In this document: positions 9,037 through 33,954 of the stretch, piece by piece
Layout of the letters: each line of letters opens with the position of its first letter
Numbering within the stretch: the stretch's first letter is position 1
Assembly (NCBI GenBank): GCA_024275575.1
Contig: JAJRYV010000056.1
Coordinates: 35,896-99,895 of the forward strand
Direction: 5' to 3'
Source of the DNA: a bacterium
GTDB lineage: Bacteria > Zhuqueibacterota > Zhuqueibacteria > Zhuqueibacterales > Geothermadaptataceae
Length of the DNA: 64,000 nt
Made by a program: the position numbers and the translations under genes
Notes under the pieces: model-generated
What the model saw: the letters and a program-made list of their open reading frames with translations, nothing else
What the model was told of the DNA's origin: nothing
The model's database searches: none

Positions 9037-9050
9037 AAGGCAAAGAATCA

Positions 9051-10766: not shown

Positions 10767-11129
10767 CCACTACTACCGTTCATTTTTCGTATTTTCTGCG
10801 GATCGATTTTTCAATTATTGAGTCATTCTCCCGACTCTGATTTGCATTTACCGGGAAATTCAGCAGTCGCTGCTCAATTTACATGCACGCGTTACTTTTG
10901 TTTTTGCCTGTTTTCGAACCTAACAATAAAGTCGTCTGATTGAGCCTTTTGCTAAAGCTCGGTGGCCGATAAAAATAGACCATTGCCTGCAAGGCCGGTG
11001 CAGAGCGAGCAAAGCAGAGAAAAATTTCTTGCGATCCAGGTTAAAATTAAATACTCTTGCACTTGTATAATTTTACAACCCGTCAGCTTGTTTGATGGTA
11101 ACAATTCTTCTTTTCAAATTGGCAATCAC

Positions 11130-13552: not shown

Positions 13553-13849
13553 ATTATGGGAAATAACAGAGAGTGATTTATTGTTCTGATCATCACAATC
13601 GGAAAAATCCAAACGCTGCAATGCACCAGTTTTGAGATTTAAACAAGCAGTGGATTTAAGTGAAATTACGGGGAGATTTCTGCAGCCAACCATTGGCTTC
13701 CTCGCTGCAAAGTGCGTTCGAAATAACCCGGGCAAATGGGTTTAAAGATAACCCAAAGAGCTCAAATTAAATAAATGATAAACCATGGATCAATTCCATT
13801 TCTCCGGCAAATGATGCCGCGAAGTTAGAATTTCACAAGAAAGAAAATT

Positions 13850-14974
13850 ATGAAAATTGGTATCTCCTGTTACCCGACTCATGGCGGCTCCGGCGTCGTC
13901 GCTTCCGAACTGGCCCTGCAATTGGCGAACAATGGCAATGAAGTCCACATTTTAAGCTACGCCACCCCGTTCCGACTGACGGAATACCACCCCAACATTC
14001 TGCTGCACGATATCGAAGTCGGCGTTTATCCCCTGTTCAAATATCCGCCCTATGCCCTCGGTCTGGCGACGAAAATGGCCGAAGTTGCCCAGGATTATAA
14101 CCTCGATATTCTGCACGCCCATTATGCAGTGCCCCATGCGACCAGCGCCTATCTGGCAAAACAGATTATCGGCGGAGATAAAATTAAAATTATTACAACG
14201 TTACATGGCACCGACATCACCCTGACCGGCGCCGACCCCAGCTTTAAAAGAGTGGTGAAATTCAGCATCGAGCAATCGGACGGTGTCAGCGCAGTATCAC
14301 ACTATCTGCGAGATCGAACCTGTGAGGAGTTTGAAATCCCAAAAGATAAAATTGAGGTCATTCACAACTTCATCGATGCCAACCGCGGCATGCGGCGCAA
14401 CACTGCTTGCCGCCGCAATCAGTACGCACCCAATGGTGAGAAAATTCTCATGCACGCCTCAAACTTTCGCCCGGTAAAGAGAACGACCGATGTGGTGCGC
14501 ATTTTTCAGCGTGTTCACGAGCAGATCCCGGCAAAACTATTACTCGTCGGTGAGGGGCCTGACCGCATTCTCGTTCAGCAGGTCATTCGTGATCTTAATT
14601 TACAAAACGATGTCATTTTTCTCGGACAGGTCGATTTTATCGATGATTTGCTCAAATGTGCGGATATATTTCTCCTGCCCTCAGAACAGGAAAGCTTTGG
14701 CCTGGCAGCGCTGGAAGCGATGAACTGCGCTATCCCGGTCATCGGCGCCACGACCGGTGGCATGGCCGAAGTGGTCGTTGATGGTGAGACCGGCTTTTTA
14801 TTTCCGGTAGGTGAAATTTCCGCTATGGCAAAAGCGGCCGTCGAACTGTTGCATGACAGCGAAAAACATATAAAATTTAAGGAAAACGCCCGCAAACGCG
14901 CCGTCCATACATTTGCCACCGACGTCATCATGCCGCAATGGGACCAGTTTTACGCGCGTGTGCTCAATGGTTAA
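13850..14974 (+). CDS. bshA: N-acetyl-alpha-D-glucosaminyl L-malate synthase (bacillithiol biosynthesis glycosyltransferase, GT4)
   Basis: [87 protein letters not shown]. Collinear with BshA as I recall the B. subtilis sequence. Confidence 0.8.
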
Positions 14975-16538: not shown

Positions 16539-16892
16539 TAAAAAAACGCGTCAACCCTGGATGATGTACAGATCATCACTTGAATGAACACAAATGGATA
16601 TATATGAATTGAAAACAATGGATAAATGGATCAGGTTATTGTGGTGCATAAAAGGCACGCAGAAACTTTAACTTCATCATAGCTGTTCAGCGCATCAGGT
16701 GGATGCTGAGCTTGCCGAGGCGGGATATCTTCTCACTTGTTCGAAACGTAATGAACTCAGGACATTGCTTCGGCAAGCTCAGGGAACGCTTCTCGCACGC
16801 TGAATGAGTTACAATAATTCACAGATAATTTCAAACAAAACAGGCTATTCCGGGATTTCCCACAGCACAGGATTGTTAACCGGGTAAAATTC

Positions 16893-19052: not shown

Positions 19053-20128
19053 TATTGCAAAACCTGCTCTTCTCCATGCAAAACGCGCAACGCCCCTTCG
19101 GCGAGGGCGCGCAATTCTTCTTCACCGGCAAAAACATAGACGGGTGCGATCCATGCTGTTTTGTCGCGAATGGCCGCAACGATTTCACCGCTATGCGCCA
19201 TGCCGCCGGTGAGCAAGATTGCGGCAACACGTCCGGCCAAAACCGTTGCCATGGCGCCGATTTCTTTGGCGATTTGATAAACCATCGCTGCGAAAACTAT
19301 AGCGGCCTGCGGTTCACCCTGATTTTTCAACTCCAGCAACCGGCGGATATCTTTAAATCCGTAATAGGAATACAGACCACCTTCTTTAAAAATGCGATCG
19401 ATCATTTGCTTTTTTGAATAGCGACCGCAGAAACAATCTTCGATCAGCGGCATGACCGGCAGCGACCCGGCCCGCTCCGGCGAAAAAGCACCCTCATCAC
19501 GCGGATTGGTGACGTCGATCATGCGACCGTCTTCATGGGCCGAGATGGAAATGCCGCTGCCGAGATGGGCAACGATTAGTCGTAATTCAGCGTAATTCTG
19601 ATTTTGCTCTTTGGCAAAACGTTTGGCGATAGCTTTTGTATTGAGGGCATGGCTCAGGCATTGCCGGTCCATGCCTTGCAGGCCGGAAAGCCGCGCTACC
19701 GGCTGCCATTCATCAACGCTGACCGGATCGACGATACAGGCCAAAGCCGTGGATTCTCCGGCAATTTCTTTTGCCAGCATGGCGCCCAGGTTTGAAGCAT
19801 GTTCACCCCGGGCAGCTTGTCCGAGATCAGCAAGCATTTCGGCATTGACGGCGTAAGTACCACTTTGAACGGGTTTCAGCAGCCCGCCGCGCCCCACTAC
19901 GGCATGCAATTTTTTGAGCTCAATATGATGCGATCGACAAAATTCGCTGATTTTTTGCAGACGAAAGGAAAGCTGTTCTGCCATCGGCTCTTTAACGAAT
20001 GGCTGTAATTCCTGCGGCGCATGCACGATATTTTCTTCAACGCGACAAAATTCATTCTCAAAATAAGCGATCTTGGTTGAAGCCGATCCGGGATTGATAG
20101 CGAGTATGCGATAACTATCAGGCTGCAT
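19040..20128 (-). CDS. buk: Butyrate (branched-chain fatty acid) kinase
   Basis: ILAINPGSASTKIAYFE, HASNLGA, VAHLGSGISISAH and GGMAHS blocks of the Buk/acetate-kinase superfamily. The ATG at 20128 is preferred; it overlaps the ptb stop by 11 nt. Confidence 0.85.
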   Translation of the reverse strand: MQPDSYRILAINPGSASTKIAYFENEFCRVEENIVHAPQELQPFVKEPMAEQLSFRLQKISEFCRSHHIELKKLHAVVGRGGLLKPVQSGTYAVNAEMLADLGQAARGEHASNLGAMLAKEIAGESTALACIVDPVSVDEWQPVARLSGLQGMDRQCLSHALNTKAIAKRFAKEQNQNYAELRLIVAHLGSGISISAHEDGRMIDVTNPRDEGAFSPERAGSLPVMPLIEDCFCGRYSKKQMIDRIFKEGGLYSYYGFKDIRRLLELKNQGEPQAAIVFAAMVYQIAKEIGAMATVLAGRVAAILLTGGMAHSGEIVAAIRDKTAWIAPVYVFAGEEELRALAEGALRVLHGEEQVLQYQNK

Positions 20129-21047
20129 CGATGAGCACCCCCAACGCAATGGCGTACAGTTTATCTTCCGCGTTCTCAACCCGCGAGGGGATGAGCACCG
20201 GTATTTGTGCGCCCATAATCACATGTGCACAGGCAGAACCGCCGATGTATTTCACCGCTTTCGCCGTCATATTCGCTGCTTCAATATTCGGCGCCACCAT
20301 GCAATCGACCGCACCGGCAACAGATGAATCGATGCCTTTGGCTTCTGCTGCGGATTTGAGCAGGGCATTATCCAGCGCCAAAGGGCCGAATACATCGCAA
20401 TCGCTAAAGAATTCAGCGGCGCGTGCGGTGATTTTTTCAGCGTCAACCGTCGAAGGTATCGCCTCGGAAACCGCCTCAGTGGCGCTCATCAAACCGATTT
20501 TCGGCCGTGCTATGCCCAGCGCCTGCAGCACCGGTACCGCATTGCCGATGATCGCCAGCTTCTGCTGGAAATCCGGCAGCGGATTGAGACCGCCGTCGGT
20601 GATGCCGACCAGCCTTTTATTGCCGGAGCACTGGTCTTCATAGAGCAGGATATCGCTGAGCAATTTACCCTTGCGCAAGCCGGTTTCACGGTTTAAAACA
20701 GCGCGCAATAACTGGTCGGTGCGCAAATTCCCTTTCAGCAGAATATCGATTTCTCCGGCACGGGCGAGAGCCACCGCCTTTTGCGCCGCATTTTCAACGT
20801 TTTCTGCAGTGTGAAATATCGAATTTTCGAGTTGTGGCAGCAAATTCAAAGTGACAATTTTCTCACGAATTTTTGTCTCATCACCGATTAAAATCGGATG
20901 GACAATTTTTTTCTTTACCGCTGCAGCCAGTGCCGACAGCGCGACGTCGTTTTCAGCGCAGACAACCGCCACTTTTTTTTCCTGCCTCTGTTGTGCCGTG
21001 GAAAGCAATTGGGCAAAAGTTCTTATTGAATATTCATTCATGTTCAT
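20118..21047 (-). CDS. ptb: Phosphate butyryltransferase / phosphotransacylase
   Basis: 309 aa of the PTA_PTB family: VAVVCAEND, HPILIGD, LLKGNLRTDQLLRAVL, MVAPNIEAANM. Classic ptb-buk gene pair. Confidence 0.85.
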   Translation of the reverse strand: MNMNEYSIRTFAQLLSTAQQRQEKKVAVVCAENDVALSALAAAVKKKIVHPILIGDETKIREKIVTLNLLPQLENSIFHTAENVENAAQKAVALARAGEIDILLKGNLRTDQLLRAVLNRETGLRKGKLLSDILLYEDQCSGNKRLVGITDGGLNPLPDFQQKLAIIGNAVPVLQALGIARPKIGLMSATEAVSEAIPSTVDAEKITARAAEFFSDCDVFGPLALDNALLKSAAEAKGIDSSVAGAVDCMVAPNIEAANMTAKAVKYIGGSACAHVIMGAQIPVLIPSRVENAEDKLYAIALGVLIDAA

Positions 21048-21230: not shown

Positions 21231-21252
21231 GCTGCGGGATTCATTCCGCAGC
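21231..21252 (-). terminator. Stem-loop downstream of the RnfC-like gene (possible operon terminator or leader element for ptb)
   Basis: On the minus strand: GCTGCGG-aatgaatc-CCGCAGC followed by TAATTTT. It is one of three hairpins in the 335-nt spacer. Confidence 0.35.
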
Positions 21253-21382: not shown

Positions 21383-22735
21383 TTATCCGTTAGCTCGTTC
21401 CCGTGCCATTTTTTCCCGCAACAGGGCTTTGCCGATGCGAAATCGCTGCACAAGGGGAATATTCGAGGGGCAGGCATAAGAGCAGGAGCCGCATTCCATG
21501 CAATCCATGATGTTCAAATCCATCATTTCATCGTAGCGGCCGGCGCGGGCGAGGGCGCCGAGCTGTGTCGGGTTGAGATAAACCGGGCAGGCATCGACAC
21601 AGCGCATGCAGCGAATACAGGGATACTCCCGGGTAGAGATCATTTCATCTTCGGTAAAAAAGACCACCCCGGAGGTCCCTTTTGTGATGGGGATATCCGT
21701 CGTGCGTATCGCATTGCCCATCATCGGGCCGCCGAAGAGGATTTGCCGCACGTCGTCGCTCATACCGCCGCAAAACTCGATAACTTCAGATAATTTCGTA
21801 CCGATGGGAATGAGCACGTTGCGTGGCTTGCGAATTCCCGGCCCGGTAATGGTCGTCACCCGTTCGATCACCGGCTGGTTATAACGAAACAGATCGCCGA
21901 TTGCGGCAACTGTCCCAACATTATTCACCACAACCGAAATATCGATGGGCAATTTACCACTGGGAATTTCGCGTTTTAAAACAGCTTCGGTGAGCATTTT
22001 TTCCGCACCCTGCGGATATTTTGTTTGCAGCGGTACGATTTCACAGGGCAGGTCGGCAGGGACTTTATTTTGCAGCCTGGCCAATGCATCGAGTTTATTG
22101 ATTTCAGCGCCCAGATACGCACGTTCGGCACCGAGAATTTTCAGACAAATTTTGATACCGAGAAAGATAGCTTCAGGCTGCTCGAGCATCACCCGGTGGT
22201 CGCTCGTGAGATAGGGTTCGCATTCCGCTGCGTTGACGATGAAAAACTCCACCCTTTTGCCTTCCGGAATGCTCAGTTTAACATGGGTGGGAAATGCGGC
22301 GCCGCCAAGACCGACAAAACCACCTTTTTGAATGGCGCTCAAAAGCTCCGCCGGTTGCATATTTTCCCAGTCCAGTACATGCTCATCAAACAGGCGCTGG
22401 GCCGAATGCAGATCGCGTTTGATGACGATGGATTCAACCATGCGGCCGCTGGGATGTGGGCGCGGTTCGATGGCTGTGACCGTCCCCGTGACCGAAGCAT
22501 GCAAAGCAGCGGAGACAAAACCACCGGCTTGCGCAATCAATTGGCCACGATAAACTTTTTCACCGGCTTTGACGACCGGTTTTGAGGGGCCGCCGAGGTG
22601 CTGGCTCAAAGGCAGAATATACTCATCCACCAACGGCATGCGCTCGACCATGTGCGTGCGCGTCAATTCCTTAAAATCTCCCGGGTGCACGCCCCGGTCA
22701 AAAGTTTTGTTTGCAGAGCTCAAAAATGTGAACAT
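21383..22735 (-). CDS. rnfC: RnfC-like NADH/FMN-binding iron-sulfur subunit (orphan; no RnfDGEA nearby)
   Basis: RnfC_N barrel-sandwich N-terminus (HPGDFKELT...PLSQHLGGPSKPVVKAGEKVYRGQLIA). The VGLGGAAFPTHVKL motif and an SLBB-like region follow. Two ferredoxin motifs are present: CIRCMRCVDACP and CMECGSCSYACP. Confidence 0.85.
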   Translation of the reverse strand: MFTFLSSANKTFDRGVHPGDFKELTRTHMVERMPLVDEYILPLSQHLGGPSKPVVKAGEKVYRGQLIAQAGGFVSAALHASVTGTVTAIEPRPHPSGRMVESIVIKRDLHSAQRLFDEHVLDWENMQPAELLSAIQKGGFVGLGGAAFPTHVKLSIPEGKRVEFFIVNAAECEPYLTSDHRVMLEQPEAIFLGIKICLKILGAERAYLGAEINKLDALARLQNKVPADLPCEIVPLQTKYPQGAEKMLTEAVLKREIPSGKLPIDISVVVNNVGTVAAIGDLFRYNQPVIERVTTITGPGIRKPRNVLIPIGTKLSEVIEFCGGMSDDVRQILFGGPMMGNAIRTTDIPITKGTSGVVFFTEDEMISTREYPCIRCMRCVDACPVYLNPTQLGALARAGRYDEMMDLNIMDCMECGSCSYACPSNIPLVQRFRIGKALLREKMARERANG

Positions 22736-22768
22736 ATATTTTCTACCGCTTTAAATATCTTTGTAAAT

Positions 22769-23098
22769 TTAAACTTCGTTAGATGTTTCATTCAATCCGG
22801 CTAAAAATGAACGCAACGTTTCCTGAAAATCATTGCTGCCGACGGCAAAACCACTCAAATGCAATAAGCGGCTCTTGAGTTTTTCGTGCATAACCTGATC
22901 GCTGCTCTGTTCAAGTTGCCGGATTCTGCTTTCGCGTTCATCTTTCTCAACTGCTGAAAACAGATCGCTCACGGTTTCGCTTTTCTGTGTTTTTCGTATC
23001 TCGAGCGGTTTTGCGAGATTTTGCAGTAGCGCCCAGACATGCGCCGCCCCAGTGCAAATTTCCACTATTTCAGCCGCAACCCGATAATAGTGGAGCAC
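22769..23098 (-). CDS. Hypothetical 109-aa helical protein embedded in the Kor/Rnf-like operon
   Basis: The GTG start lies 3 nt after the stop of the 1344-aa gene; same strand, 33 nt before the rnfC-like gene. No motif recognised; charged helical middle (EKDERESRIRQLEQSSDQVMHEKLKSRL). Confidence 0.45.
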   Translation of the reverse strand: MLHYYRVAAEIVEICTGAAHVWALLQNLAKPLEIRKTQKSETVSDLFSAVEKDERESRIRQLEQSSDQVMHEKLKSRLLHLSGFAVGSNDFQETLRSFLAGLNETSNEV

Positions 23099-23101
23099 AT
23101 T

Positions 23102-26100
23102 CTATGCATCGATTGAGCGGATATAAGGGATTCTTCCGTTTTGATCAGCGGCAGATAGCTCAAGAAAATCCGGCAACGGCATTGTCCGTTCGTCAATTGC
23201 TGCGGCTTCAAATTCCTCAAATTGTCTTTGAAATTTCGGCCACTGCACGAGAAAATGCGCCGGCGTTAAAAGCTCGGTAATTTCCTTTTTCAATCCGTCA
23301 CGACTCTGCTGAACCCATGTGACGGCAGCCCATTTTTTATCCGGGGCAGGATTTTCACTAATGTCTAAACCTGGTAAAATCTGGTCTTTTTCGGTCACAG
23401 CACAACTGAACAACGGCGCGTAGCGGCAATGCACCGCCAGTTGCGACAATGCCGTTGCGGCGCTGCCGGGAAGTTTATTTGACGCTTCAATTTGCAGAAA
23501 AGCCGCGCCGTCAAATTCGATGGCGGCGAAAGCATTTTTCAATAAATTTTTCGGTGTGCCAATGGCACTTTGCGCAACTTGAACGTTGTTGAGAAAACAG
23601 GAATTTAACGCTGCCACTGTGTCGATTACGGAAGCACCATGAGTCAATCGGGGCTCTGTATTTAAAAAGACGCATTTAAACGGTTTGGCGCCATCAGCCA
23701 GCGGTAACAAATCCGCCGGATTTGCAGCCGATAAAAGGCCCGGGAAAACACCCACAACAGGCGGGTAAAAAGATTTTTCCTCCTCGCTGAAATCCTGCCA
23801 TTGCAGAGAAAGCGGAAGTTTCCCATGGTGATTTTCCAGTAAATTCTCGGCCCGGCGCAAAACGAGAAACGTCTCCGACATTTGCTGCATGAGCCCGGCA
23901 AAAAGACCGCTTAAGCTGCTCACGGAACAGGAAGGTTGCATTTGCAGCCACGGCGATTTAAAGGCATTGTACGGGAACTGCAACACATCGAGGCGGGAAT
24001 CGATTGCAATAATGGCATTGGCGCGCGCAAAACGATTATTCTCAGTGGAATAGGCCTGCTGCAGGGCGACGAGTTTTTCGCGTATGGCGACCAATTCCTG
24101 AATTTTCCCTGCATCCGGCTCGTCGTTTAAACGACTTGCAGCCAGGCGCGCCGCGTTGATATTTTGTTTACCCTGCGCCAGCAATTCGCTCAACCTGCGG
24201 CCGTAAGCCTCGAAGTCATTGATCTGGCTGGTTTTACTGAGATCACCCTGCACTCGGGTTTCGATTTTATCTTTCAGGTCATCGATTTTTGCCTGCAATT
24301 TCGCGACGCGCTCCTGCATCGTTTTTTCGATGGCCACTGTCAGCAAACGCAAAGCATTTTGTACATTAGCGGTTTTAGCAGCGTCGGGAAAAGGCAAGAC
24401 AGCCGCACGCACATTTTTATTAAGCAGGCTGTGCCAGGGCAATTCATCACAGCTTAAATCAGCGAGATCAGCAGCCGGCAACGCCTGTAAAAATGTCCAG
24501 TTTTGCTGATTCAGGGAAATAACTTCGGGTGTCGCCGCAACGATTTCCGCCGCCAGTTCGGGCAAAGCAGCGAGCAGCGGCGCTGCATTGCGGTATTCCG
24601 CCGGATTGATGGCGAGAACGATGACGCGGCCGCTGCCTTTGTTTTGCTCGTTGGCGCGACCGAAAAAATGATGATTCTTCAGTAGCAGCACTTTGCTGCA
24701 GATGGCCATGGTTAGGGCGAATTCTTCTTTAATTTGCTGTTTTTGCTCCTCGTTCGGCTTCATTTTTTCGATGAGTTTCACCAGGGACGAATCGAACAAT
24801 TCACCGGCATAACAGAAATTTTCGATGATCTCCGTTTGCAAATGCTTATAAGCCAGCCTGGCCAAATTATCGCGCAAGCGCGGCAGTTGGGTGAAAACAG
24901 CGCCCTCATTTTGCTTCAGCGCCATTGCGGTTTCGAGAATCGTTGCCAAATCCTGAACAGACGCCCAAACTCCGGCTTCAAAAGCTAACAAAAAGTCGAG
25001 ACGATCCACCGGCAAATTTTCGGGAATAAACTGCACGATCTTGCCGGTTTCCCGTGCGCCGTGGGTGAAAGCGCTGCTGCCGGCAGGCATCGTTGATATC
25101 GCGGCGAACGGATCGGCGCTGATGTTTTTCCATTGACCGTCAGCCTGCAGATATCCGATTCGGCTCCAAAATTTTTCCAGATCAAACAGGCTGCCATCCA
25201 AATCCTGCGTATTTTTGACGGTCCAGGGTGCGTCAATTTCATCGACACCGGGCTGATCCGTTGCTGCGATTTTCTTTATTATTACACTGTTAACGACTTC
25301 ATATCCCGCCTTGAAGGCCTCGGCTTCCGCGGCAGGCGCTGTTGCGGTGAATTGCTTTTTAATTTTGACGTTTAATTTTTTATCACCGAGATCGAATATT
25401 CGAGTGATTGCACCGAGAAGCGCGCTTTGCGTTTGCAGTTCAGGTGCGGCGGACGCTGCAAATACTTTGACTCCGGCTGTTTTCAAATCCGCTGCAATTT
25501 TTTCCGGCAAATCGATCTTTGTTGCACAATTGCGCAGCAGTAGAGCGCCCCCTGCCGCAATGCCGTCATTTGCTATATATTTTTCCAGTTCAGCAACGTT
25601 GCTGCAAACGACGAGCTTGCGGCCGGTGCGCGGTTCTGCTTTCAGCGGGAGAAAATTAAAATAAAAAGCCGGCTCGCCCTGATGCCAGGTTTGCCCGGCT
25701 TCCATCTGGCCCTGTTCGATGCCGGTAAAAGCTTCGCAAAAATATGCCGATATTTGGGGGTCAAATCTGCTTTGTTGCAGAACGAGAATTTCATCGCCGT
25801 TGATAAAATCCACCGTGGTCATGTCGATTTTCAGGCCGAGATCAGCCGCTGCAGGATAATCTTTACGCACGGCCTGTTGCAGCATTTCCAGTTTGGGCAA
25901 ACGCAAATCCGGCTGCCGGAAATTTACTCCGATGAAAAAGGTATTGCCCGTTGCCGTGCTGCCCGCCAGCGCCGCCAATTCGGCGAAGGAGACTTTGCGC
26001 TGCCCGCCGGCATCGACGGCGGTTGTAAAACCAATTTCACGGCCGGCCGCTGCAGAAAATTGTTGTTGAATCAACCGCGTGAAACTACCGGGCTTGCTGC

Positions 26101-27136
26101 CGGCGTTCGCTGATTTTTCGATCACCGTTATTCTTTCAATTGTCGTGAGCGTTTTTGCCAATTCCTGAAAAACTGCAGGGGAAAAATGATTCAGATGCAA
26201 AACGCTGAAACCGGCTTTTTTCTCCTTAGCCAGGTGATCGGCGACCCGGCAAGTTTCACGAAAAACAGCGCCCTGGGCGACGATCAGGTGATTTGCCTTT
26301 TTTACAGAATGCAAGCTGTTGCAACTGTAATCTCTGCCGGTCAATTGGGCGAATTCGCTGATGCAGCGCTGCAAAATCTCGTCGTGATGGGTGGCGGAAA
26401 AGGCAAAATTTGCTGCATTTGATTGCGCCAGCCAGCCGGTCTCCATTTGCGATAAAACGGCGATGGGGCGGTCGAGATCACAATAGCGCGGCACGCGTCG
26501 ACGTTTTTCGCCGAAGACCAGGGTCTGTGCCGGAGTGCTCGCTTCGGGAAAGTCTGAAGCATCACCGTTGAATTTTTGCAGCAAAGCATTTGCAGGTCGG
26601 AAGAAACTTTGAACACGGTTGAGCAAATCAACATCATTGAGAACGACGCAGGGAGCCAGCGCCTGTTCCGCCGCAGCATGGCCGATGAGCGCAAGATCGA
26701 CTGCCGATTGCACATCATTGGCATGGAGAACAATGGCACCACTGTCTATGAGTTGCTGCAGAAAAAAGCTGTCATGCAATGTCAGATGAAACAGGATCGG
26801 TAAATGTTTGCCCACGGCATCGGCAATACCATCGATGAGTTCAGCCGTATTTCTCGCTGAAGAAAACAGTGTGGTGCGCAAACCTGTGGCTGTTGCGCCT
26901 TGTGTAAAACCCAGTCCAGCAGAGCAATCCTGCGAAATTTCAATATTGTCGGGAAGGTTTTTATTGTGTGATTTCCACGGCTGCCGTGAAATATCCAAAG
27001 CGACGACATTGCATAATACAGCCTCAATATCGAGCAAAACCGCTCGTGTTGCTGCAATATTACTCTGGTCGCCAAACGGCGCCTGATCGATTTTTGATTT
27101 ATTTTTTTTCTTGAAAATCATTGCGATTTCTCTCAA
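23102..27136 (-). CDS. 1344-aa PFOR-like protein lacking cofactor-binding signatures (putative pseudoenzyme or scaffold)
   Basis: Collinear by eye with full-length PFOR/NifJ/YdbK, but the diagnostic residues are replaced (details in findings). No CxxCxxCxxxCP and no GDG...NN ThDP motif anywhere. The start is either TTG 27136 (TTGA overlap with the rnfB-like stop) or ATG 27121. Confidence 0.6.
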   Translation of the reverse strand: MREIAMIFKKKNKSKIDQAPFGDQSNIAATRAVLLDIEAVLCNVVALDISRQPWKSHNKNLPDNIEISQDCSAGLGFTQGATATGLRTTLFSSARNTAELIDGIADAVGKHLPILFHLTLHDSFFLQQLIDSGAIVLHANDVQSAVDLALIGHAAAEQALAPCVVLNDVDLLNRVQSFFRPANALLQKFNGDASDFPEASTPAQTLVFGEKRRRVPRYCDLDRPIAVLSQMETGWLAQSNAANFAFSATHHDEILQRCISEFAQLTGRDYSCNSLHSVKKANHLIVAQGAVFRETCRVADHLAKEKKAGFSVLHLNHFSPAVFQELAKTLTTIERITVIEKSANAGSKPGSFTRLIQQQFSAAAGREIGFTTAVDAGGQRKVSFAELAALAGSTATGNTFFIGVNFRQPDLRLPKLEMLQQAVRKDYPAAADLGLKIDMTTVDFINGDEILVLQQSRFDPQISAYFCEAFTGIEQGQMEAGQTWHQGEPAFYFNFLPLKAEPRTGRKLVVCSNVAELEKYIANDGIAAGGALLLRNCATKIDLPEKIAADLKTAGVKVFAASAAPELQTQSALLGAITRIFDLGDKKLNVKIKKQFTATAPAAEAEAFKAGYEVVNSVIIKKIAATDQPGVDEIDAPWTVKNTQDLDGSLFDLEKFWSRIGYLQADGQWKNISADPFAAISTMPAGSSAFTHGARETGKIVQFIPENLPVDRLDFLLAFEAGVWASVQDLATILETAMALKQNEGAVFTQLPRLRDNLARLAYKHLQTEIIENFCYAGELFDSSLVKLIEKMKPNEEQKQQIKEEFALTMAICSKVLLLKNHHFFGRANEQNKGSGRVIVLAINPAEYRNAAPLLAALPELAAEIVAATPEVISLNQQNWTFLQALPAADLADLSCDELPWHSLLNKNVRAAVLPFPDAAKTANVQNALRLLTVAIEKTMQERVAKLQAKIDDLKDKIETRVQGDLSKTSQINDFEAYGRRLSELLAQGKQNINAARLAASRLNDEPDAGKIQELVAIREKLVALQQAYSTENNRFARANAIIAIDSRLDVLQFPYNAFKSPWLQMQPSCSVSSLSGLFAGLMQQMSETFLVLRRAENLLENHHGKLPLSLQWQDFSEEEKSFYPPVVGVFPGLLSAANPADLLPLADGAKPFKCVFLNTEPRLTHGASVIDTVAALNSCFLNNVQVAQSAIGTPKNLLKNAFAAIEFDGAAFLQIEASNKLPGSAATALSQLAVHCRYAPLFSCAVTEKDQILPGLDISENPAPDKKWAAVTWVQQSRDGLKKEITELLTPAHFLVQWPKFQRQFEEFEAAAIDERTMPLPDFLELSAADQNGRIPYIRSIDA

Positions 27137-27972
27137 ATATTTTGCACTTCTGCAGCACGTTGTTCCTGCGGGAATTGTTGCTTTTCAATCCATAAAATGG
27201 CACCTGTGGGGCAGCGCAAGGTGGCGATTTCCGTCTGTTGGGAAAAGTTATTATCGATGACGGCGAGATTATTTTTAATTTCGATCAAACCGGCCGGGGC
27301 ATCGGCTGCGCAGATGCCGCAGCCGGTGCAAGCGACTTTGCACAAATCGGTAGCGCTATCGCCGGCGAGCAGGGATTTGCATTGTACCAGCAGTTTTTGT
27401 TTTTCGGAGCGAAGTTCAAACAAATCTTTGGGGCAAATTTCGACACAATCACCGCAAGCGGTGCATTTGTCTGCATCGACGACGGGCAGGCCGGTGGAAC
27501 TCATGTGAATCGCTTCAAAAGTACAAACGACCTCGCAATCAGCGAGCCCGAGGCAGCCCCAGGAGCAGGCCTTGCCACCGCCGGCAACAACAGCCGCCGC
27601 CCGGCAGGAGGAGAACCCCTGATAATCGACGATATCCCCGGCAACATCGCAGCCGCCGGCGCACATGAGCCGGGCAATTTTCCGCTCTGCCTCACCGGCA
27701 TCGATGCCGAGAAAATTTGCGATAGTTTCTGCTGAATCCGCTCCACCCACCGAACAGGCACTCGGCGACTTGCTGCCGCCAACCACTTCTTCGGCAAAAG
27801 CGGCGCACCCGGGAACACCACAGGCACCGCAATTAGCGCCGGGCAACATATCGGTCACCTGGCCGATGCGCGGGTCTTCATAAACGCTGAGTTTTCGATT
27901 GGCAAAAACGAGCACCAGGGCAAGCGCGGCACTCAGCCCTGTGAGAAATCCTACGGATGATAAAAATTCCAT
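27133..27972 (-). CDS. rnfB: RnfB-like membrane-anchored polyferredoxin
   Basis: N-terminal TM helix (FLTGLSAALALVLVFA). The RnfB Fe-S domain follows (LPGANCGACGVPGCAAFAEEVV ... CSVGG), then several Cys clusters: CAGGC, CSWGCLGLADCEVVC, CTACGDCVEICP, CTGCGICAADAP. Confidence 0.8.
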   Translation of the reverse strand: MEFLSSVGFLTGLSAALALVLVFANRKLSVYEDPRIGQVTDMLPGANCGACGVPGCAAFAEEVVGGSKSPSACSVGGADSAETIANFLGIDAGEAERKIARLMCAGGCDVAGDIVDYQGFSSCRAAAVVAGGGKACSWGCLGLADCEVVCTFEAIHMSSTGLPVVDADKCTACGDCVEICPKDLFELRSEKQKLLVQCKSLLAGDSATDLCKVACTGCGICAADAPAGLIEIKNNLAVIDNNFSQQTEIATLRCPTGAILWIEKQQFPQEQRAAEVQNI

Positions 27973-28030
27973 AATTGATCGTTTGGATTAAATTTTATAA
28001 TTGCAGCAGGTCAAACGGCCGGATGAAATC

Positions 28031-30403
28031 TTAATTAAAAGGCTGCGCTCGTTTCATCAGGTCTTCAAGACCCTCTTCGTCCGGGTTTAGCGGTTTGCCG
28101 GGGTGGATGATTTTCACCGGACATTTTTCCGCAGCTTCGACGATATCGCGGAAAGGGCCGGCGCCGGCATCTTTGATAATTGCTTGCTGATTGCCGTCGT
28201 AAATGAAGATCAGCGAATTCCGTTGTATGCATTCATTGCAACTCGTGCACAGCGGTGTATCGATGTAAGCGGCATCGAATGATATATCATCATCAGCTTC
28301 CCCGGCAATTTCAGCTTTTGGTGTTTCCTCGCTTTTCGGCGCCGAGACTGCTTGTTCCGGCGCCGCAGCAGGTGCAGTCGCAGGTACGGCAACGGGTGCC
28401 GCCGTCTGACCGAGCAATCCGGCAGCAATATTGCCGACAATCTCATCAGCAAGGGAACCGACGGTCGAGTCGAGTTTAGCCTGATAAGTTTGTTCCAGTT
28501 CATTTTCTTTGGCGGCCAGGGCTGCTGCAAGTTTTTCCTGTTCAATCTGCATTTGAGCCTGCACATGGGAATTTTCTATCCCGGCCAGTTCCTGTAAATT
28601 CTGCCAGTTCAACTGAAGTTTTTGCCCTGAATTCAGCAGAAATTGTGAAACGACGACAGCGAATTTATGCCCTTTTTTATCGTATTTAATAACAAATGGA
28701 ATCTTGTTCGATGTTGTACTTTCGTGCAAAAAATCTGCAACGGGAATAAAATCATCGGTCAATTCAGCAGCATTTATTTCGACACAATGGGCGGCAAATT
28801 CCGGTTGGTCGGAAAGGAAATCGACGGTTGTATAACAATCTTCGATAGTGATATGATCGCCGTTTTCATCAATAAAACCGGCCTTTGTCCTGATCCAGTC
28901 GCCGGCGAAATCTTCATTCGTTGCGATGGAAAACTTATCAGCCCATTTTAAACCCTTGCCGGGGTCGAGTGCAAATGCCGGATTAACGCGGGACGAAGTG
29001 GCTCCAATGACTTGTTTAAAGCGATTTTCAGCATCCTTGTGCCCGCCGACAAAAACCCCCCAAAATGATGGGCCGCTAAACTGCAAACCATTTTGAAAAA
29101 CTTCGGTTAGTGAGGTAAAATTCGACAATGAAAGCTGTGCGGCAAATATATTATTCTCCTGCAAAAGGCTGCGCATTAATCGGTTGGCAGCAGCAGAATA
29201 AAAATGCGATTCATGGGGTGCTTTGCCCTGTTCCAGCACCTTGTCGAATTCGATAATAACTTTGACGGGTGCTTCTGTCGCCGCGAGTCGTAAAATTTCG
29301 CTGATATGATCGGCGGTGAGTTTACTCTGTTTCAAATAGACAACCGCAGGCCAGATCATCTTCAGCTCAGAAACCGGCACATTGATAAGATCAAATTTCT
29401 CAAAATAGGCATCATGTTGTTGTGCATCGTATCGATTTTCAACTTCGAGCATGGCGATTTGCCGGGCGCGGAAATAACCGATAAACTTTTTCAAGGTGGA
29501 TTCATACTGCTTGAATGCAGTCTTAAAATCACTTGCAACGGTCATCTCACCGTTTTCCAGTTCTTCGATCATCTGCGTCAATTTATCTTTTACCAGTTGC
29601 AGCCGGGCATTTCTCGTCTGCGATGGATTGAGATGGCCCACATGCGCCATGAGGCCGGCAAAAGTATCAGGTTTGATTTCATCGGTTGCGAGACGGCCGG
29701 CCAATTCTTCCGGTGACTTTGCCGCCTCCGATTTTTCATATTCAATGGTGAGAATATCACTGACACGCTGCAGCAGGTCGTGATTTTGACGGAGAAATTC
29801 AGCACTGGAATTTGCCGCCTGCCGCGCATAAATACGGGAAAATATGCGTTGGATGACTTGCGGCTGGAAAGCGAGCAATTCTGCTGGAAAGCTCTTTTCG
29901 CTGAATAGTGTTTTGAGCGTTTTTTGCAGGTTTTCTTTTTTATCTTTTGCGGTTCTCGCTGATTTAATAACGTCTTTTAGCGCTTTTTCCCAGGTTTCTT
30001 CCAGGTTTGCGGATTTCGCAAAGCACTTTTGGCGCATCGCATTTTCGAGGAGATATAAATAATGTCGCAATTCGGCAGTTTCTTCGTTTTCCGCGTCCAA
30101 ACTGGTGATCATTTCATCGATAAATTGCGTCAATGTGATCATCGGTTTTTCAGTATCTTCCGGTAAGATCAGCGGGAAATCAAGGCGCATTTTTTCAAGA
30201 TGACGCAAGCCGGCATCAAAAACCGAGCTTACCCCCGACAGAGGCACTGGTTTTGCTTTAAACTCGCTCTTTTCTCCGGTGATAAAAAAATGACGCAAAT
30301 CAGTAATAAAGTTCTGTTCATCTATTTGAGCAAGGGCGCCGTTGTTGCTGACCTGCCCAACTTGATTTTCAACCACGACATCAGGCATGGCCGTTTCCTC
30401 CAC
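28031..30403 (-). CDS. 790-aa protein: helical N-region, degenerate PFOR domain-VI-like region, coiled coil, Ala/Pro-rich linker, C-terminal single-cluster ferredoxin domain
   Basis: C-terminal 84 aa: YIDTPLCTSCNECIQRN...AAEKCPVKIIHPG, a CxxCxxC...CP single-[4Fe-4S]/[3Fe-4S]-type ferredoxin pattern. It is preceded by QTAAPVAVPATAPAAAPEQAVSAPKSEETPKAE. The start (30403 or ATG 30388) overlaps the korB stop. Confidence 0.55.
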   Translation of the reverse strand: MEETAMPDVVVENQVGQVSNNGALAQIDEQNFITDLRHFFITGEKSEFKAKPVPLSGVSSVFDAGLRHLEKMRLDFPLILPEDTEKPMITLTQFIDEMITSLDAENEETAELRHYLYLLENAMRQKCFAKSANLEETWEKALKDVIKSARTAKDKKENLQKTLKTLFSEKSFPAELLAFQPQVIQRIFSRIYARQAANSSAEFLRQNHDLLQRVSDILTIEYEKSEAAKSPEELAGRLATDEIKPDTFAGLMAHVGHLNPSQTRNARLQLVKDKLTQMIEELENGEMTVASDFKTAFKQYESTLKKFIGYFRARQIAMLEVENRYDAQQHDAYFEKFDLINVPVSELKMIWPAVVYLKQSKLTADHISEILRLAATEAPVKVIIEFDKVLEQGKAPHESHFYSAAANRLMRSLLQENNIFAAQLSLSNFTSLTEVFQNGLQFSGPSFWGVFVGGHKDAENRFKQVIGATSSRVNPAFALDPGKGLKWADKFSIATNEDFAGDWIRTKAGFIDENGDHITIEDCYTTVDFLSDQPEFAAHCVEINAAELTDDFIPVADFLHESTTSNKIPFVIKYDKKGHKFAVVVSQFLLNSGQKLQLNWQNLQELAGIENSHVQAQMQIEQEKLAAALAAKENELEQTYQAKLDSTVGSLADEIVGNIAAGLLGQTAAPVAVPATAPAAAPEQAVSAPKSEETPKAEIAGEADDDISFDAAYIDTPLCTSCNECIQRNSLIFIYDGNQQAIIKDAGAGPFRDIVEAAEKCPVKIIHPGKPLNPDEEGLEDLMKRAQPFN

Positions 30404-31361
30404 TTACCGGCTCGATCAAAATCTTGTTAAAAGCGTTCTCCAGAACATTTTTGCGCATCTCGCTGGTCACAAAACGCTTGCGCCGCTTTGCATCATCATA
30501 AACTTCAACATTTTCATTGCGGTAAAGAATACCCACTGGCAATAGGTCTTCTTTTTCAGCCAGCTCGCGAGCTCGGTTCAAGTTGGATGGATCATGATTT
30601 TCATGATTTTTAAAAGTTTTGAGCATGGTTTCGCTGGAGTTCAATCCGTCTTCGTGCTGCAGCATTAAAATCGATTCCGGTTGCATCAGATGATCGAACA
30701 TGTGCGGGGTGAAATGCGGGCAGCGCTGCACGATATGAATAAACGAGAAACCACGATGGTGATAGGCCGCTTTAATAATATCATACATCATTTCAGGCAT
30801 CCATTCACCGACTTGAGCGACGAATGAGACATTGCTGATACCCAATGTGACGCTGAGTGGTTTGATGGGCTTCAACGGCGAACCTGTTGGTGTAGTATTG
30901 GTTACCAGCCCTTGCGGTGAAGTTGGGGAAACCTGCAGTTTTGTAAGACCATAAATTTCATTATTATGCAGCATTGCGACCATATTCATATTGTATCGCA
31001 CAGCGTGGATCCAGTGCGCCGTTCCGATGCTGCAGCAATCGCCGTCGCCCATATTGACAAATACGTCAAGATCGGGCCGGCGGATTTTGATGCCTTCGGC
31101 GATGGGCAAAGCACGGCCGTGCAAACCGTGGAAACCGTCTGTTCCCATGTAGTGGGGGAAGCGGCTCGAACAACCGATACCGGAGACAAATACAGTTTTC
31201 TCCGGTGCGAGTTGTTCATCGCGGCACAAGCGCTGGACAGATGTCAGAATAGAATTATCACCACAGCCGGGGCACCAGCGCGGCACATTGCTTTGATATT
31301 CTTCCAAAGTGTAGTAAGTATCCGGTAATGCAATTTCACAATTTTGATTTATGCCAAACAT
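30381..31361 (-). CDS. korB: 2-oxoacid:ferredoxin oxidoreductase beta subunit (ThDP-binding; two-subunit KorAB type)
   Basis: WCPGCGDNSIL, SGIGCSSRFPHYM, ThDP motif NMGDGDCCSIG...NNEIYGLTK. Confidence 0.9.
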   Translation of the reverse strand: MFGINQNCEIALPDTYYTLEEYQSNVPRWCPGCGDNSILTSVQRLCRDEQLAPEKTVFVSGIGCSSRFPHYMGTDGFHGLHGRALPIAEGIKIRRPDLDVFVNMGDGDCCSIGTAHWIHAVRYNMNMVAMLHNNEIYGLTKLQVSPTSPQGLVTNTTPTGSPLKPIKPLSVTLGISNVSFVAQVGEWMPEMMYDIIKAAYHHRGFSFIHIVQRCPHFTPHMFDHLMQPESILMLQHEDGLNSSETMLKTFKNHENHDPSNLNRARELAEKEDLLPVGILYRNENVEVYDDAKRRKRFVTSEMRKNVLENAFNKILIEPVSGGNGHA

Positions 31362-31413
31362 GGCTCACCTCATGTCATTATGTGCTTAAATTTCTGGCGC
31401 AATCAGCGCGGCA

Positions 31414-33303
31414 TTATTTGAGACGTTCCTCGATCATATCGATAATGGAATGCGGCTTGATCGGCTGTCCGAAAACATTGGACCAGCAATCGACATCGAT
31501 GAGATAACGTGCCCGTAGCAACAATGCAAGGTTTGAGTAACGGCGATTATTTTCATCGAAAAATTTATCCTTATAACTGTCCGAATAATTAATTTCAACG
31601 GTCATCACCTGCTTGAATTGCTGCAGTATTTCCTTGATTCCTGAAGCCATGGGTTGCAAATATTTGAGATGCAACGAGGAGACTGAATAGCCTTTTTCAC
31701 AGGCTGCATCCACGGCTTCTTCGATCACGCCGAGTGTACTGCCCCAGCCGATGATGAGCAAATCACCTTTTTTATCACCGTGAACTTTCGGTGTTTGCAG
31801 TGTTTTTTGAAATGCTGCCAGTTTCTTGCTGCGCTTTTCCATTGCAAATTGATTGATCCAGGGATCGTAGGCCACTTTGCTTTCGCGTGAATGCGCCAGG
31901 CCGGTCAGGGTGTGCATGCCGCCGGGCTGCCCGGGAATGATCCGGCTTGAAAGTCCGGTTTCTTCATCCCAATCGTAGGGGGCCATGTCTTCCGGAACCG
32001 GCGACTGGTCAAACGGCGGCGCCACCCATTCTTCTTTAAACTCCGGTTTCATGAATGGTTGCTGGCCGGTTGCCAGGTTGGCATCAGAAAGAATATAAAC
32101 CGGCATGCGGAAGGTTTCAGCGATTTTGCGCGCGGTTATCGGCGCATAAAAACAGTCTTCGATGGTCGCCGGCGCCATGACGATTTTGGGCGCGTCGCCA
32201 TGAGTATGGAAAAGCGACATAAGCAAATCGCCCTGTTCGACTTTAGTCGGCAAGCCAGTGCTTGGGCCGCCACGCTGAACGTTCACAACAACGAGTGGGA
32301 TTTCCGCCATTGAAGCGAGCCCCAGAACTTCGGTTTTTAATGACAACCCGGGCCCGGAAGTGATGGTCACCGCGCATTTGCCGGCATAGGAGGCGCCAAC
32401 GGCAAATGCCGCCGCCGCAATCTCATCTTCCGCCTGATGCACGACGCCACCGACATGTTCAAAAATCTCGCTGAGATAATGAGACGCCGAAGTTGCCGGT
32501 GTGATGGGATACATGGCGCAGACATCCATGCCGGATGCGACAACGCCCAACGCCAGCGCGGTATTGCCATTCAAAACAATTTGCCGATCTTTGATGCCTG
32601 CAGACGGAATTTCAAATTTAAAATCGAGGTTTTCTTCAGCCCATGCATAGCCGGATTCGAGCAATTGAATATTCGGCGCGATGACCTTCTCGCCTTTTTT
32701 GGCAAAGGTCAGACGAATCTCATTGCGCGCAGCCTCGAGGTCGCGTGAATAAATACTGCACAACATGCCGAGAGCCCACATGTTTTTACCGCGCTGCGGA
32801 TTTTGTACAATTTTCAGGCATTCCTTTTCCATCGGCACTTCATAGATGCGCAATTTCGTTTTGCTCAGTTCATCCAGGCCTTCCCGGTACATTTTTTTGA
32901 TTTCCGGGTCCGCATGATCACGCCATTTGTCTTCAAGCAAAACGATGGCATTGGGTTTCATATTGTCTGACTCAAAGCGGCCGAGCAGCGATTGTTCATT
33001 AAAGGCGACAACGAGATCGGCTTCATCGCCGGCATTGGTGATATAAAAGGAACCGATACGAATTCTGTTGCCGCTGCCGCCGACCTTGCTGCGGGGCGGC
33101 GGCTGAATTTCTGCAGGAATAATTTCCACAGTCCAGATCCCGTTGCCGCTTTTTGCGGAAATCGCACCGAATGCCTGCCCGGCTTTCTGCGCACCCTCAC
33201 CAGCGTCACTGACGATTTCAATAATATGCTCTTTTAACAGAACTTTCTTTTTTTCACCCGCAGCAAGCGGGGAAACCTTTGCCAAAGCTTCTACTTTGTC
33301 CAT
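31414..33303 (-). CDS. korA: 2-oxoacid:ferredoxin oxidoreductase alpha subunit (fused gamma+alpha domains; KorA type)
   Basis: 629 aa: N-terminal gamma-like domain (IVSDAGEGAQKAGQ), then MYPITPATSAS, QAEDEIAAAAFAVGASYAG, GPGLSLKTEVLG, VNVQRGGPSTGLPTK. Confidence 0.9.
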   Translation of the reverse strand: MDKVEALAKVSPLAAGEKKKVLLKEHIIEIVSDAGEGAQKAGQAFGAISAKSGNGIWTVEIIPAEIQPPPRSKVGGSGNRIRIGSFYITNAGDEADLVVAFNEQSLLGRFESDNMKPNAIVLLEDKWRDHADPEIKKMYREGLDELSKTKLRIYEVPMEKECLKIVQNPQRGKNMWALGMLCSIYSRDLEAARNEIRLTFAKKGEKVIAPNIQLLESGYAWAEENLDFKFEIPSAGIKDRQIVLNGNTALALGVVASGMDVCAMYPITPATSASHYLSEIFEHVGGVVHQAEDEIAAAAFAVGASYAGKCAVTITSGPGLSLKTEVLGLASMAEIPLVVVNVQRGGPSTGLPTKVEQGDLLMSLFHTHGDAPKIVMAPATIEDCFYAPITARKIAETFRMPVYILSDANLATGQQPFMKPEFKEEWVAPPFDQSPVPEDMAPYDWDEETGLSSRIIPGQPGGMHTLTGLAHSRESKVAYDPWINQFAMEKRSKKLAAFQKTLQTPKVHGDKKGDLLIIGWGSTLGVIEEAVDAACEKGYSVSSLHLKYLQPMASGIKEILQQFKQVMTVEINYSDSYKDKFFDENNRRYSNLALLLRARYLIDVDCWSNVFGQPIKPHSIIDMIEERLK

Positions 33304-33751: not shown

Positions 33752-33784
33752 AAAAAAACGGGACCTGGTCAAGCCAAATCCCGC
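33752..33784 (-). terminator. Candidate rho-independent terminator of htrA
   Basis: Minus strand: CGGGA-tttggcttgaccagg-TCCCG followed by T7, about 170 nt after the htrA stop. The stem is short, so confidence is moderate. Confidence 0.45.
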
Positions 33785-33954
33785 TTTGAAATGCGTCGTA
33801 ACGAGCGAACCCTGGCAGGGTATTGCCGTCAAGTTATTGATTCAATTTTGTAAAACTCGCTGTTGTGTTGATTACTATATATAAAACAGGCAGCGACGTC
33901 AATCCAGTCTCACTGAAGCGCGTTTGTAATTGAACTGCCTGCATTGTTGCACGA

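Follow-up and report, generated by a model that had tools for sequence, protein, structure and literature searches.

Rnf complexes and the 2-oxoacid oxidoreductases that depend on ferredoxin hold a central place in anaerobic energy conservation and in the reductive tricarboxylic acid (TCA) cycle, and the two are usually thought to be linked by diffusible ferredoxin; the known two-subunit KorAB enzymes work with free ferredoxin. Some soluble 2-oxoacid oxidoreductases are linked to NAD(P), namely KorABC of Azoarcus evansii (2-oxoglutarate:NADP+), PadEFGHI (phenylglyoxylate:NAD+) and the PFOR-CPR fusions of Euglena and Cryptosporidium, whose partner is a flavoprotein of the ferredoxin:NADP+ reductase type or the CPR type. 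We analysed a stretch of 64,000 nt (the window) of contig JAJRYV010000056.1 from a bacterium of the Zhuqueibacterota (GenBank assembly GCA_024275575.1), which carries on its minus strand an operon running from korA to rnfC and including the genes of two large PFOR-related proteins, X and the giant Y. Rnf, KorAB and PFOR are each well characterised; what is apparently new is the combination, in which Rnf and an oxoglutarate oxidoreductase appear to be joined by PFOR-derived scaffolds and a tethered ferredoxin.

In the solved Rnf complexes, electrons pass from RnfB through RnfA/E, RnfG and RnfD to RnfC, with no direct step from RnfB to RnfC (PMC12174285), and Caldithrix abyssi has a complete rnfBCDGEA (PMC5317091). 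An oxoglutarate oxidoreductase is likewise genetically wired to its electron partner in tubeworm symbionts, where korABCD is interleaved with flxABCD-hdrABC (PMC6315080). That system has some hosts in common with the clusters described below (tubeworm symbionts, Chromatiaceae), but its oxidoreductase has four subunits and its partner is Flx-Hdr; hard-wiring was proposed only for this four-subunit enzyme, and the dimeric korAB was reported to be "located elsewhere" with TCA genes (Rubin-Blum 2019, PMC6315080). In the Riftia symbiont, korAB(3) and a PFOR-like gene drop together in expression (Mitchell et al. 2024, PMC11636981). A 2025 review of Rnf and Nqr mentions neither oxoglutarate nor clusters of this kind (PMC12174285). 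The original prediction, made from the letters of the window, had supposed that the unit was undescribed, and no description of it was found in the openly accessible literature, subscription-only papers being outside the scope of the search; an earlier description may exist in the latter. The NAD(P)-linked enzymes named above are alike in having an oxidoreductase core hard-linked to a pyridine-nucleotide module, as had been proposed for the window, but the partner here would be Rnf, with an ion-translocating membrane core in most lineages.

The korA-to-rnfC operon of the window

Seven minus-strand open reading frames (ORFs) had been predicted for the operon. All seven were found at the coordinates listed here, with the domain content expected of them according to Pfam and NCBIfam, and they are packed as tightly as had been described, with intergenic gaps of 58 nt at most or with overlapping genes.

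31414..33303, minus strand: korA, alpha subunit (domains III-I-II) of a 2-oxoacid:ferredoxin oxidoreductase with two subunits (TIGR03710, 526 bits, above cutoff)
30381..31361, minus strand: korB, beta subunit, with the thiamine pyrophosphate (TPP) motif GDGD..NN and four Cys for a single [4Fe-4S] cluster (TPP_enzyme_C)
28031..30403, minus strand: X, a predicted non-catalytic protein of 785 or 790 aa, descendant of the C-terminal third of a PFOR (hhalign, BLASTP; likely start ATG 30388)
28415..28573, minus strand: long helix of X, residues about 611-663 (W..LQELAGI, then a heptad-like stretch, in alignment A4)
28268..28414, minus strand: Ala/Pro/Glu-rich low-complexity linker of X, residues about 664-712 (variable in length and sequence across A4)
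28034..28267, minus strand: terminal single-[4Fe-4S] ferredoxin of X (Fer4_13; CTSCNEC...CP, ending HPGKPLNPDE..RAQPFN)
27133..27972, minus strand: rnfB, with N-terminal membrane helix, PF04060 cluster domain and polyferredoxin (Fer4) (TIGR01944, above cutoff)
23102..27136, minus strand: giant Y, full-length homologue of single-chain PFOR without cofactor motifs (alignment A1; likely start ATG 27121)
23102..23104, minus strand: in-frame TAG severing the giant from its conserved tail (same frame; continuous in homologue P0002 and in the orthologue of locus L007, described below)
22769..23098, minus strand: 109-aa ORF, the C-terminal helical tail of the giant and not a gene family of its own (alignment with homologues)
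21383..22735, minus strand: rnfC, with NADH/FMN site and two [4Fe-4S] clusters (TIGR01945, 526 bits, cutoff 246)

KorA carries the Pfam domains POR, POR_N and PFOR_II, and its nearest solved relative is 6n2n_A of Magnetococcus marinus, matched over the full length (E 1e-79). That of KorB is 6n2n_B (E 6e-49), and the motifs WCPGCG, GIGCSS, GDGD and QRCP are kept in the alignment. The pair thus has the architecture of the known two-subunit KorAB enzymes: an alpha subunit in the order III-I-II, a beta subunit with the TPP motif and the four Cys of one [4Fe-4S] cluster, and, as had been predicted, no delta subunit or ferredoxin domain. It differs from them in that korAB here stands in one operon with genes for Rnf subunits and for a ferredoxin tethered to a protein. 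By its motifs and closest structure, KorAB is predicted to be a catalytically intact two-subunit 2-oxoacid:ferredoxin oxidoreductase. The NCBIfam equivalog cutoffs are not reached, and 6n2n is a 2-oxoglutarate enzyme. In related clusters sucCD follows the giant gene in ten loci, in six of them lying between the giant gene and rnfC. Judged by these relatives and by sucCD, the most likely substrate is 2-oxoglutarate and not a branched-chain keto acid, which had also been considered.

Another 2-oxoglutarate-handling enzyme is encoded beside the cluster. At 36103-40764 (plus strand) lies gltB, which encodes a glutamate synthase large subunit of 1553 aa (GATase_2, Glu_syn_central, Glu_synthase, GXGXG); a gene for the small subunit was not seen next to it. 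As a neighbour of the cluster that also speaks for 2-oxoglutarate as the substrate, gltB is found both in the window and at the nearest related cluster, in Calditrichota metagenome-assembled genome (MAG) GCA_008501765.1 (locus L007), where the neighbourhood gltB-degP-korA is kept (73% identity).

RnfB and RnfC had been regarded as merely Rnf-like; both are canonical and full length. RnfB matches its counterparts in Acetobacterium woodii (9eri_B, E 1e-58) and Clostridium tetanomorphum (7zc6_B, E 7e-54) over the full length, and its N-terminus is hydrophobic, so that the membrane anchor is retained. RnfC matches 9eri_C and 7zc6_C end to end (E about 1e-111) and has the RnfC_N barrel, Complex1_51K (NADH/FMN), SLBB and both [4Fe-4S] motifs. 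The two proteins thus agree with solved Rnf subunits over their whole length. From the known Rnf complexes (A. woodii 9ERI, C. tetanomorphum 7ZC6, A. vinelandii 8AHX) the operon differs in three respects: a PFOR-derived gene of 1300-1700 codons stands between rnfB and rnfC, korAB and X precede rnfB, and rnfA/D/E/G are not nearby in the window.

X is related to PFOR through its C-terminal part. Residues 201-790 align to the alignment of giants and long PFORs with an hhalign probability of 100% (E 7e-42), and X matches the complete long PFOR P0004 by BLASTP (1e-35). The aligned region comprises a domain VI in degenerate form, the long helix, the linker rich in Ala and Pro and the terminal ferredoxin; no TPP motif was found in X, and its sole Pfam match is a weak one to Fer4_13 (residues 714-767). 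That the 790-aa protein ends in a tethered ferredoxin was thus confirmed, and hhalign adds its PFOR origin. In an AlphaFold2 (AF2) model of otherwise low confidence, residues 611-663 form one helix, probably a coiled-coil stalk, and the linker has no secondary structure. The ferredoxin, which matches ferredoxin I of Desulfovibrio africanus (1dax), is the best-conserved part of the X family, its Cys, HPG motif and terminal N being invariant or nearly so (A4). A profile search of 1.84 billion representatives (50% clustering) gave 1536 relatives of X at E<=1e-10 and 909 at E<=1e-30, counted as such representatives; the best 150 mostly match almost the whole length of X. A profile search of a word-indexed database gave five homologues. 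Comparison of homologue N-termini places the probable start of X at ATG 30388 (785 aa), an overlap of 8 nt with the korB stop.

For the giant Y, only weak Pfam matches to POR_N and PFOR_II and none to TPP_enzyme_C were obtained; the profile of its family, however, detects the PFORs 6cin, 1b0p and 7plm in the PDB at E 1e-84 to 1e-90 (6cin, 4e-90). The AF2 model of residues 1-1200 has a mean predicted local distance difference test (pLDDT) score of 72.7, and Foldseek places PFOR 6cin on top (E 5e-28), with PorA-type domains at TM-scores of 0.72-0.75. Whole-model superposition on PFOR gives a TM-score of 0.27 despite this E value and about 1150-1380 aligned columns, which we read as a different placement of domains in the monomer model and not as another fold. 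While fold and homology are present, the TPP motif and all three [4Fe-4S] sites of a catalytic PFOR are absent, the giant having lost the TPP motif, the proximal-cluster Cys and the ferredoxin-domain Cys, which in PFOR form two CxxCxxCxxxCP motifs of domain V (A1, 14 sequences). The complete relatives have GGDGAMLDIG..NTGGQ for the TPP motif of domain VI and YPITPST for the YPITP/Glu elements of domain I, whereas the window giant has FPGLLSAANP and no equivalent. No CxxCxxC motif was found in the window giant or in its intact orthologues L001, L002, L007 and L008. The 1344-aa protein is thus, as had been predicted, a PFOR homologue devoid of cofactor motifs.

The giant family consists of PFOR homologues of 1400-1730 aa, which fall into three grades. 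The first (P0003, P0004, P0007) is complete, with all PFOR motifs, a C-terminal helical extension and, unlike the PFORs of known structure, an extra terminal ferredoxin; the second, the majority, keeps only the two ferredoxin-domain clusters; in the third, to which the window giant and P0002 belong, every Cys motif and the TPP motif are gone. Compared with the single-chain PFORs of D. africanus (1B0P) and Moorella thermoacetica (6CIN), the giant is homologous over the full length and X to domain VI and the extension, but in the giant a helical region is inserted, a helical tail stands at the C-terminus, and the motifs are lost. Two large proteins without catalytic signature had been predicted; both derive from PFOR and have lost the TPP and Fe-S motifs except for the terminal ferredoxin of X. 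As far as sequence comparison tells, X and Y are non-catalytic descendants of a long single-chain PFOR with a C-terminal ferredoxin, which X retains.

The 109-aa ORF had been counted as a gene. It lies in the same frame as the 1344-aa ORF, with one TAG and one codon between them, and in homologue P0002 (1459 aa, 50% identical) the two parts form one continuous protein. The tail is 50% identical to that of the L007 orthologue, which is the same as for the rest of the giant, and it aligns with the W..LQ.L.. / ..LR..L..L.G ending conserved throughout the family. Because of the common frame, the single TAG, the continuity of P0002 and the equal conservation, the seven ORFs represent six genes. The TAG may be a MAG assembly error or a very recent change. 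Recoding of TAG was considered and found no support; TAG is an ordinary stop that ends 5 of the 39 genes of the window. Homologue N-termini further indicate ATG 27121 (1339 aa), 11 nt past the rnfB stop, as the probable start of the giant, and the TTGA overlap with the rnfB stop that had been described is therefore probably not real.

Two terminator-like hairpins, both consensus matches only, flank exactly the genes from korA to rnfC, and ptb-buk lies beyond the second:

33755..33787, minus strand: terminator-like hairpin, 14-bp stem and T run, 3' of degP
21231..21252, minus strand: terminator-like hairpin, 7-bp stem with 6 G-C pairs, 3' of rnfC
20118-21047, minus strand: ptb, phosphate butyryltransferase family, under the equivalog cutoffs
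19040-20179, minus strand: buk (NF002834, 468 bits)

The first hairpin, which follows the degP stop (33955) and precedes the korA start (33303), would mark the upstream operon boundary, and the second is probably the end of the operon, which is consistent with the lack of ptb-buk at that place in the Calditrichota MAG. The gap between rnfC and ptb measures 335 nt and contains this hairpin. The original prediction had drawn ptb-buk into the system; since the adjacency is not conserved in that MAG and the hairpin stands before ptb, membership in the operon was rejected, and ptb-buk is probably a separate unit. Rfam and tRNA scans of the 64-kb window gave no match.

The cluster in other genomes

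To see with which genes the giants travel, we scanned one genome per species of GTDB with the giant as seed (alignment A2). The scan found it in at least 101 species, and 80 loci, each from a different species, were analysed. Upstream genes were counted in the 59 loci with at least 6.5 kb visible and downstream genes in the 62 with at least 5.5 kb visible. Upstream of the giant gene, rnfB was found in 56 of 59 loci, korA and korB in 52 and an X-type gene in 54; downstream, rnfC was found in 55 of 62 loci and rnfD/G/E/A in 53. The conserved order is korA-korB-X-rnfB-giant-rnfC-D-G-E-A, with the giant gene inside the rnf operon and korAB, where present, always directly upstream of X. The giants thus almost always travel with korAB and rnfB/rnfC, contrary to the first condition under which the original prediction would have fallen. 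In a Polyangiaceae MAG, a Longimicrobiales MAG and a metagenome contig, too, a complete rnf operon has the giant gene after rnfB and before rnfC and is preceded by korAB and a gene of the X type. Clusters of the relatives hold the full set in the order of rnfBCDGEA in Caldithrix abyssi (PMC5317091), sometimes with apbE in addition. Independently, 55 loci were obtained from metagenomes in a scan with X as the seed, and all 30 of those of at least 6 kb fit the cluster order as far as the contig extends; in one metagenome locus, rnfB and the giant gene are on the opposite strand.

The window agrees with this order in korA, korB, X with a terminal ferredoxin, rnfB, the PFOR-like giant and rnfC. 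Its RnfB and RnfC had been called orphans, which holds for few lineages only, since rnfD-G-E-A follow rnfC directly in 53 of the 62 loci. We regard the window cluster, from its gene content, as a rare shortened form of a widespread cluster.

By record title, 53 of the 80 loci belong to Gammaproteobacteria/Pseudomonadota, 8 to Planctomycetota, 7 to Acidobacteriota, 5 to Myxococcota/Deltaproteobacteria and 2 to Eisenbacteria, with 5 unclassified. The gammaproteobacterial hosts, among them sulfur oxidisers and some animal symbionts, include Chromatiaceae, Sedimenticolaceae, Ca. Thiosymbion, Ca. Thiodiazotropha, the symbionts of Lamellibrachia and Escarpia, Thioploca, Achromatium and Woeseiaceae.

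Nearly every cluster has one terminal ferredoxin, either on X or, where X is without it, on an extra complete long PFOR. In five loci of Acidobacteriota/Eisenbacteria (L074, at 8802-13997; L044, L075, L079 and L081), X and rnfB are separated by a further PFOR-type gene, the third of the cluster, about 1700 codons long. Its product is apparently complete; it has the TPP motif and three CxxCxxC motifs, except in L075, where there are two, and X in these loci is without any such motif. In Longimicrobiales (L006) it is the giant that is the complete enzyme (P0004, 1728 aa). These loci suggest a functional long PFOR that ended in a ferredoxin as the origin of the pseudoenzymes. The giants of three Phycisphaerales loci (L032, L036, L052) lack CxxCxxC although rnfCDGEA and apbE follow; the Fe-S sites must therefore have been lost at least twice, and their loss does not depend on that of the membrane genes.

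The sucCD genes lie between the giant gene and rnfC in Sedimenticola-type loci (L017, at 14702-17173; L018, L022, L047, L056, L065), and in tubeworm-symbiont/Sedimenticolaceae loci (L027-L029, L041) they follow the giant gene with no rnfCDGEA nearby. A NuoF-like gene was considered as a substitute for RnfC in the tubeworm symbionts and rejected, as the NuoF-like/FAD_binding_2 pair is also found upstream of korA in Sedimenticola-type loci that keep rnfCDGEA.

The position of the giant gene within the rnf operon, and not beside korAB, allows another view of X and Y, namely that they are accessory proteins of Rnf which do not dock KorAB but, for example, shield against oxygen, cap RnfB for assembly or regulation, or gate the access of ferredoxin, korAB being co-regulated only because its product makes or uses the ferredoxin pool. 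In two Ca. Thiosymbion loci (L013, L020), rnfB, the giant gene and rnfC are present at some distance from one another, and neither korAB nor X lies in the 10 kb upstream; RnfH of A. vinelandii provides a precedent for an accessory protein (PMC12174285), and according to record titles many hosts come from oxic-anoxic interfaces. Yet korAB is found in 52 of the 59 loci in its fixed place next to X, X and Y descend from a family of 2-oxoacid oxidoreductases that work as dimers, and the tethered ferredoxin would have no obvious role if KorAB used free ferredoxin. Thus we consider a purely accessory role quite unlikely.

The nearest cluster, that of the Calditrichota MAG, reads gltB-degP-korA-korB-X-rnfB-giant-rnfC and is followed by unrelated genes, with neither rnfDGEA nor ptb-buk. 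KorA, KorB, RnfB and RnfC of the window are 82-88% identical to those of this MAG, X 55% and the giant 50%. No close relatives of the giant were found in a metagenome scan (alignment A3), and the X-seeded metagenome scan gave no relative above 34% identity over a long stretch; the window lineage is therefore known from two or three species only.

The cluster could also have ceased to work as a unit in this genome. The in-frame TAG at 23102-23104, the giant without Cys motifs, the fast divergence of X and the giant and the lack of rnfDGEA nearby would all fit a decaying remnant that has lost its membrane genes and the Fe-S sites of its giant. However, the same architecture without rnfDGEA and without Cys is intact in the second species (50-88% identity), where the giant is a continuous protein of 1459 aa; the 109 codons past the TAG are still open and conserved like the rest of the giant; the motifs of KorAB, RnfB and RnfC are all kept; and the TAG may have either of the origins mentioned above. 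It is therefore improbable that the unit no longer works.

A possible oxidoreductase-Rnf assembly

A hard-wired assembly of a 2-oxoglutarate oxidoreductase and Rnf with a swinging ferredoxin is our best reading of the cluster, and we regard its chance of being correct as about even. Counted in its favour were the synteny, the intact KorAB with a 2-oxoglutarate enzyme as nearest solved relative, the canonical anchored RnfB with RnfC, the conserved tethered ferredoxin, the full rnfCDGEA kept by Phycisphaerales whose giants lack clusters, sucCD, the joint drop of korAB(3) and the PFOR-like gene in the Riftia symbiont (PMC11636981) and the bracketing hairpins; the physical complex, the shuttle role of the X ferredoxin, the direction of the reaction and the encoding of membrane subunits elsewhere are what we infer. 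In such an assembly, X and Y would form a scaffold holding KorAB beside the ferredoxin-accepting RnfB. They would probably pair via their C-terminal helices, which would be natural pairing elements because they are homologous and 2-oxoacid oxidoreductases are obligate dimers. The ferredoxin of X, carried on the helix and the flexible linker, would swing between the cluster of KorB and the polyferredoxin of RnfB and thereby replace free ferredoxin, and beyond RnfB the electrons would take the usual Rnf path by RnfA/E, RnfG, RnfD and RnfC to NAD+. The net reaction would be 2-oxoglutarate + CoA + NAD+ <-> succinyl-CoA + CO2 + NADH, coupled to Na+/H+ translocation. The oxidative, energy-conserving direction would be that of a peptide-degrading FCB-group (Calditrichota-like) bacterium, while in autotrophic sulfur oxidisers the reaction would be reversed, with NADH and the ion gradient driving CO2 fixation or the supply of 2-oxoglutarate. 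In the window lineage, rnfD/G/E/A would be encoded elsewhere in the genome.

Several observations weigh against this assembly. The giant of the window has no redox cofactor motif and therefore cannot carry electrons, and it is interrupted by the in-frame TAG. Divergence is much faster in these two proteins, X and the giant, than in those of the neighbouring genes (50-55% against 82-88% identity). The AF2 model of X is poor (pLDDT 47.5) and was not used for a fold search. RnfA/D/E/G and ApbE were not found in the 64-kb window by tblastn with references from two phyla, in agreement with the original prediction as regards RnfA/D/E/G, and in the Calditrichota MAG, too, none of rnfA/D/E/G lies in the 10 kb on the flanks of the cluster; membrane coupling in this lineage is therefore an assumption.

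The missing membrane genes could also mean that, in this lineage alone, a 2-oxoacid:NAD+ oxidoreductase which is independent of the membrane, or no more than anchored to it, is built from KorAB, the X ferredoxin, RnfB and RnfC, and that in it X and Y bring the clusters of RnfB and RnfC within range of each other. Such a wire from KorAB through ferredoxin and RnfB to RnfC had been the original prediction. Besides the two species without rnfD/G/E/A beside the cluster, the tubeworm-symbiont loci, with sucCD after the giant gene and nothing Rnf-like beyond, are in keeping with it, and NAD(P)-linked 2-oxoacid oxidoreductases are known (Azoarcus KorABC, PadEFGHI; NF045764 and NF045766 appear among the NCBIfam matches). 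The composition of the wire stands, but its direct step from RnfB to RnfC has no counterpart in the electron path of solved Rnf (PMC12174285) and is at odds with the relatives, where rnfDGEA directly follow rnfC in 53 of 62 loci. Moreover, RnfB and RnfC are canonical over the full length and RnfB keeps its membrane helix, direct transfer would waste about 200 mV, and shared membrane subunits encoded elsewhere are plausible because Caldithrix has a complete rnfBCDGEA (PMC5317091). A wire of this kind is thus unlikely.

Returning to the hard-wired assembly, its fullest form would be a widespread and apparently undescribed supercomplex in which two pseudoenzymes bolt a 2-oxoglutarate oxidoreductase to Rnf and a tethered ferredoxin takes over with no free pool. 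Ions would be pumped directly by 2-oxoglutarate oxidation, and in the opposite direction CO2 fixation by the oxidoreductase would be powered by the membrane potential in microaerobic sulfur oxidisers and animal symbionts; in the window the giant would be purely structural, and RnfB and RnfC would serve as an alternative input/output pair for membrane subunits encoded elsewhere. We put this forward tentatively, as a possibility somewhat more apt to fail than to hold.

That rnf operons of at least 101 species, among them symbionts of tubeworms, lucinids and nematodes, include genes for an oxoglutarate oxidoreductase, for a ferredoxin on a tether and for two dead paralogues of PFOR suggests direct channelling of low-potential electrons. 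If true, this would give a testable answer to the question of how the oxidoreductase is supplied with reduced ferredoxin in oxygen-exposed autotrophs, and would allow fermenters to conserve the roughly 200 mV between 2-oxoglutarate and NADH. It would also provide a clear case of evolution from enzyme to scaffold and a role for genes labelled "PFOR-like", "ferredoxin" or "4Fe-4S binding protein".

Other genes of the window

An acyl-CoA carboxylase or decarboxylase module may be encoded at 5501-9036 (plus strand), where three genes stand in a row: that of a carboxyltransferase like the alpha subunit of methylmalonyl-CoA decarboxylase (TIGR01117, 822 bits, under its cutoff), a short ORF with a STAS domain, and that of a biotin carboxylase (NF006367, over its cutoff). 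Secreted proteins are encoded at 41133-43148 and 55267-57902 (both plus strand). The first has six DUF5666 repeats and a C-terminal sorting domain of the type IX secretion system (T9SS), which is the chief sign within the window of an FCB-group bacterium, alongside the closeness of the cluster to that of the Calditrichota MAG; then come a choice-of-anchor X domain protein and one that weakly matches the F510_1955 glycosylhydrolase family. Two GGDEF-EAL proteins of cyclic di-GMP turnover (9051-10766, minus strand; 43728-45965, plus strand) and a homologue of AmmeMemoRadiSam system protein B (544-1854, minus strand) have no evident link to the operon.

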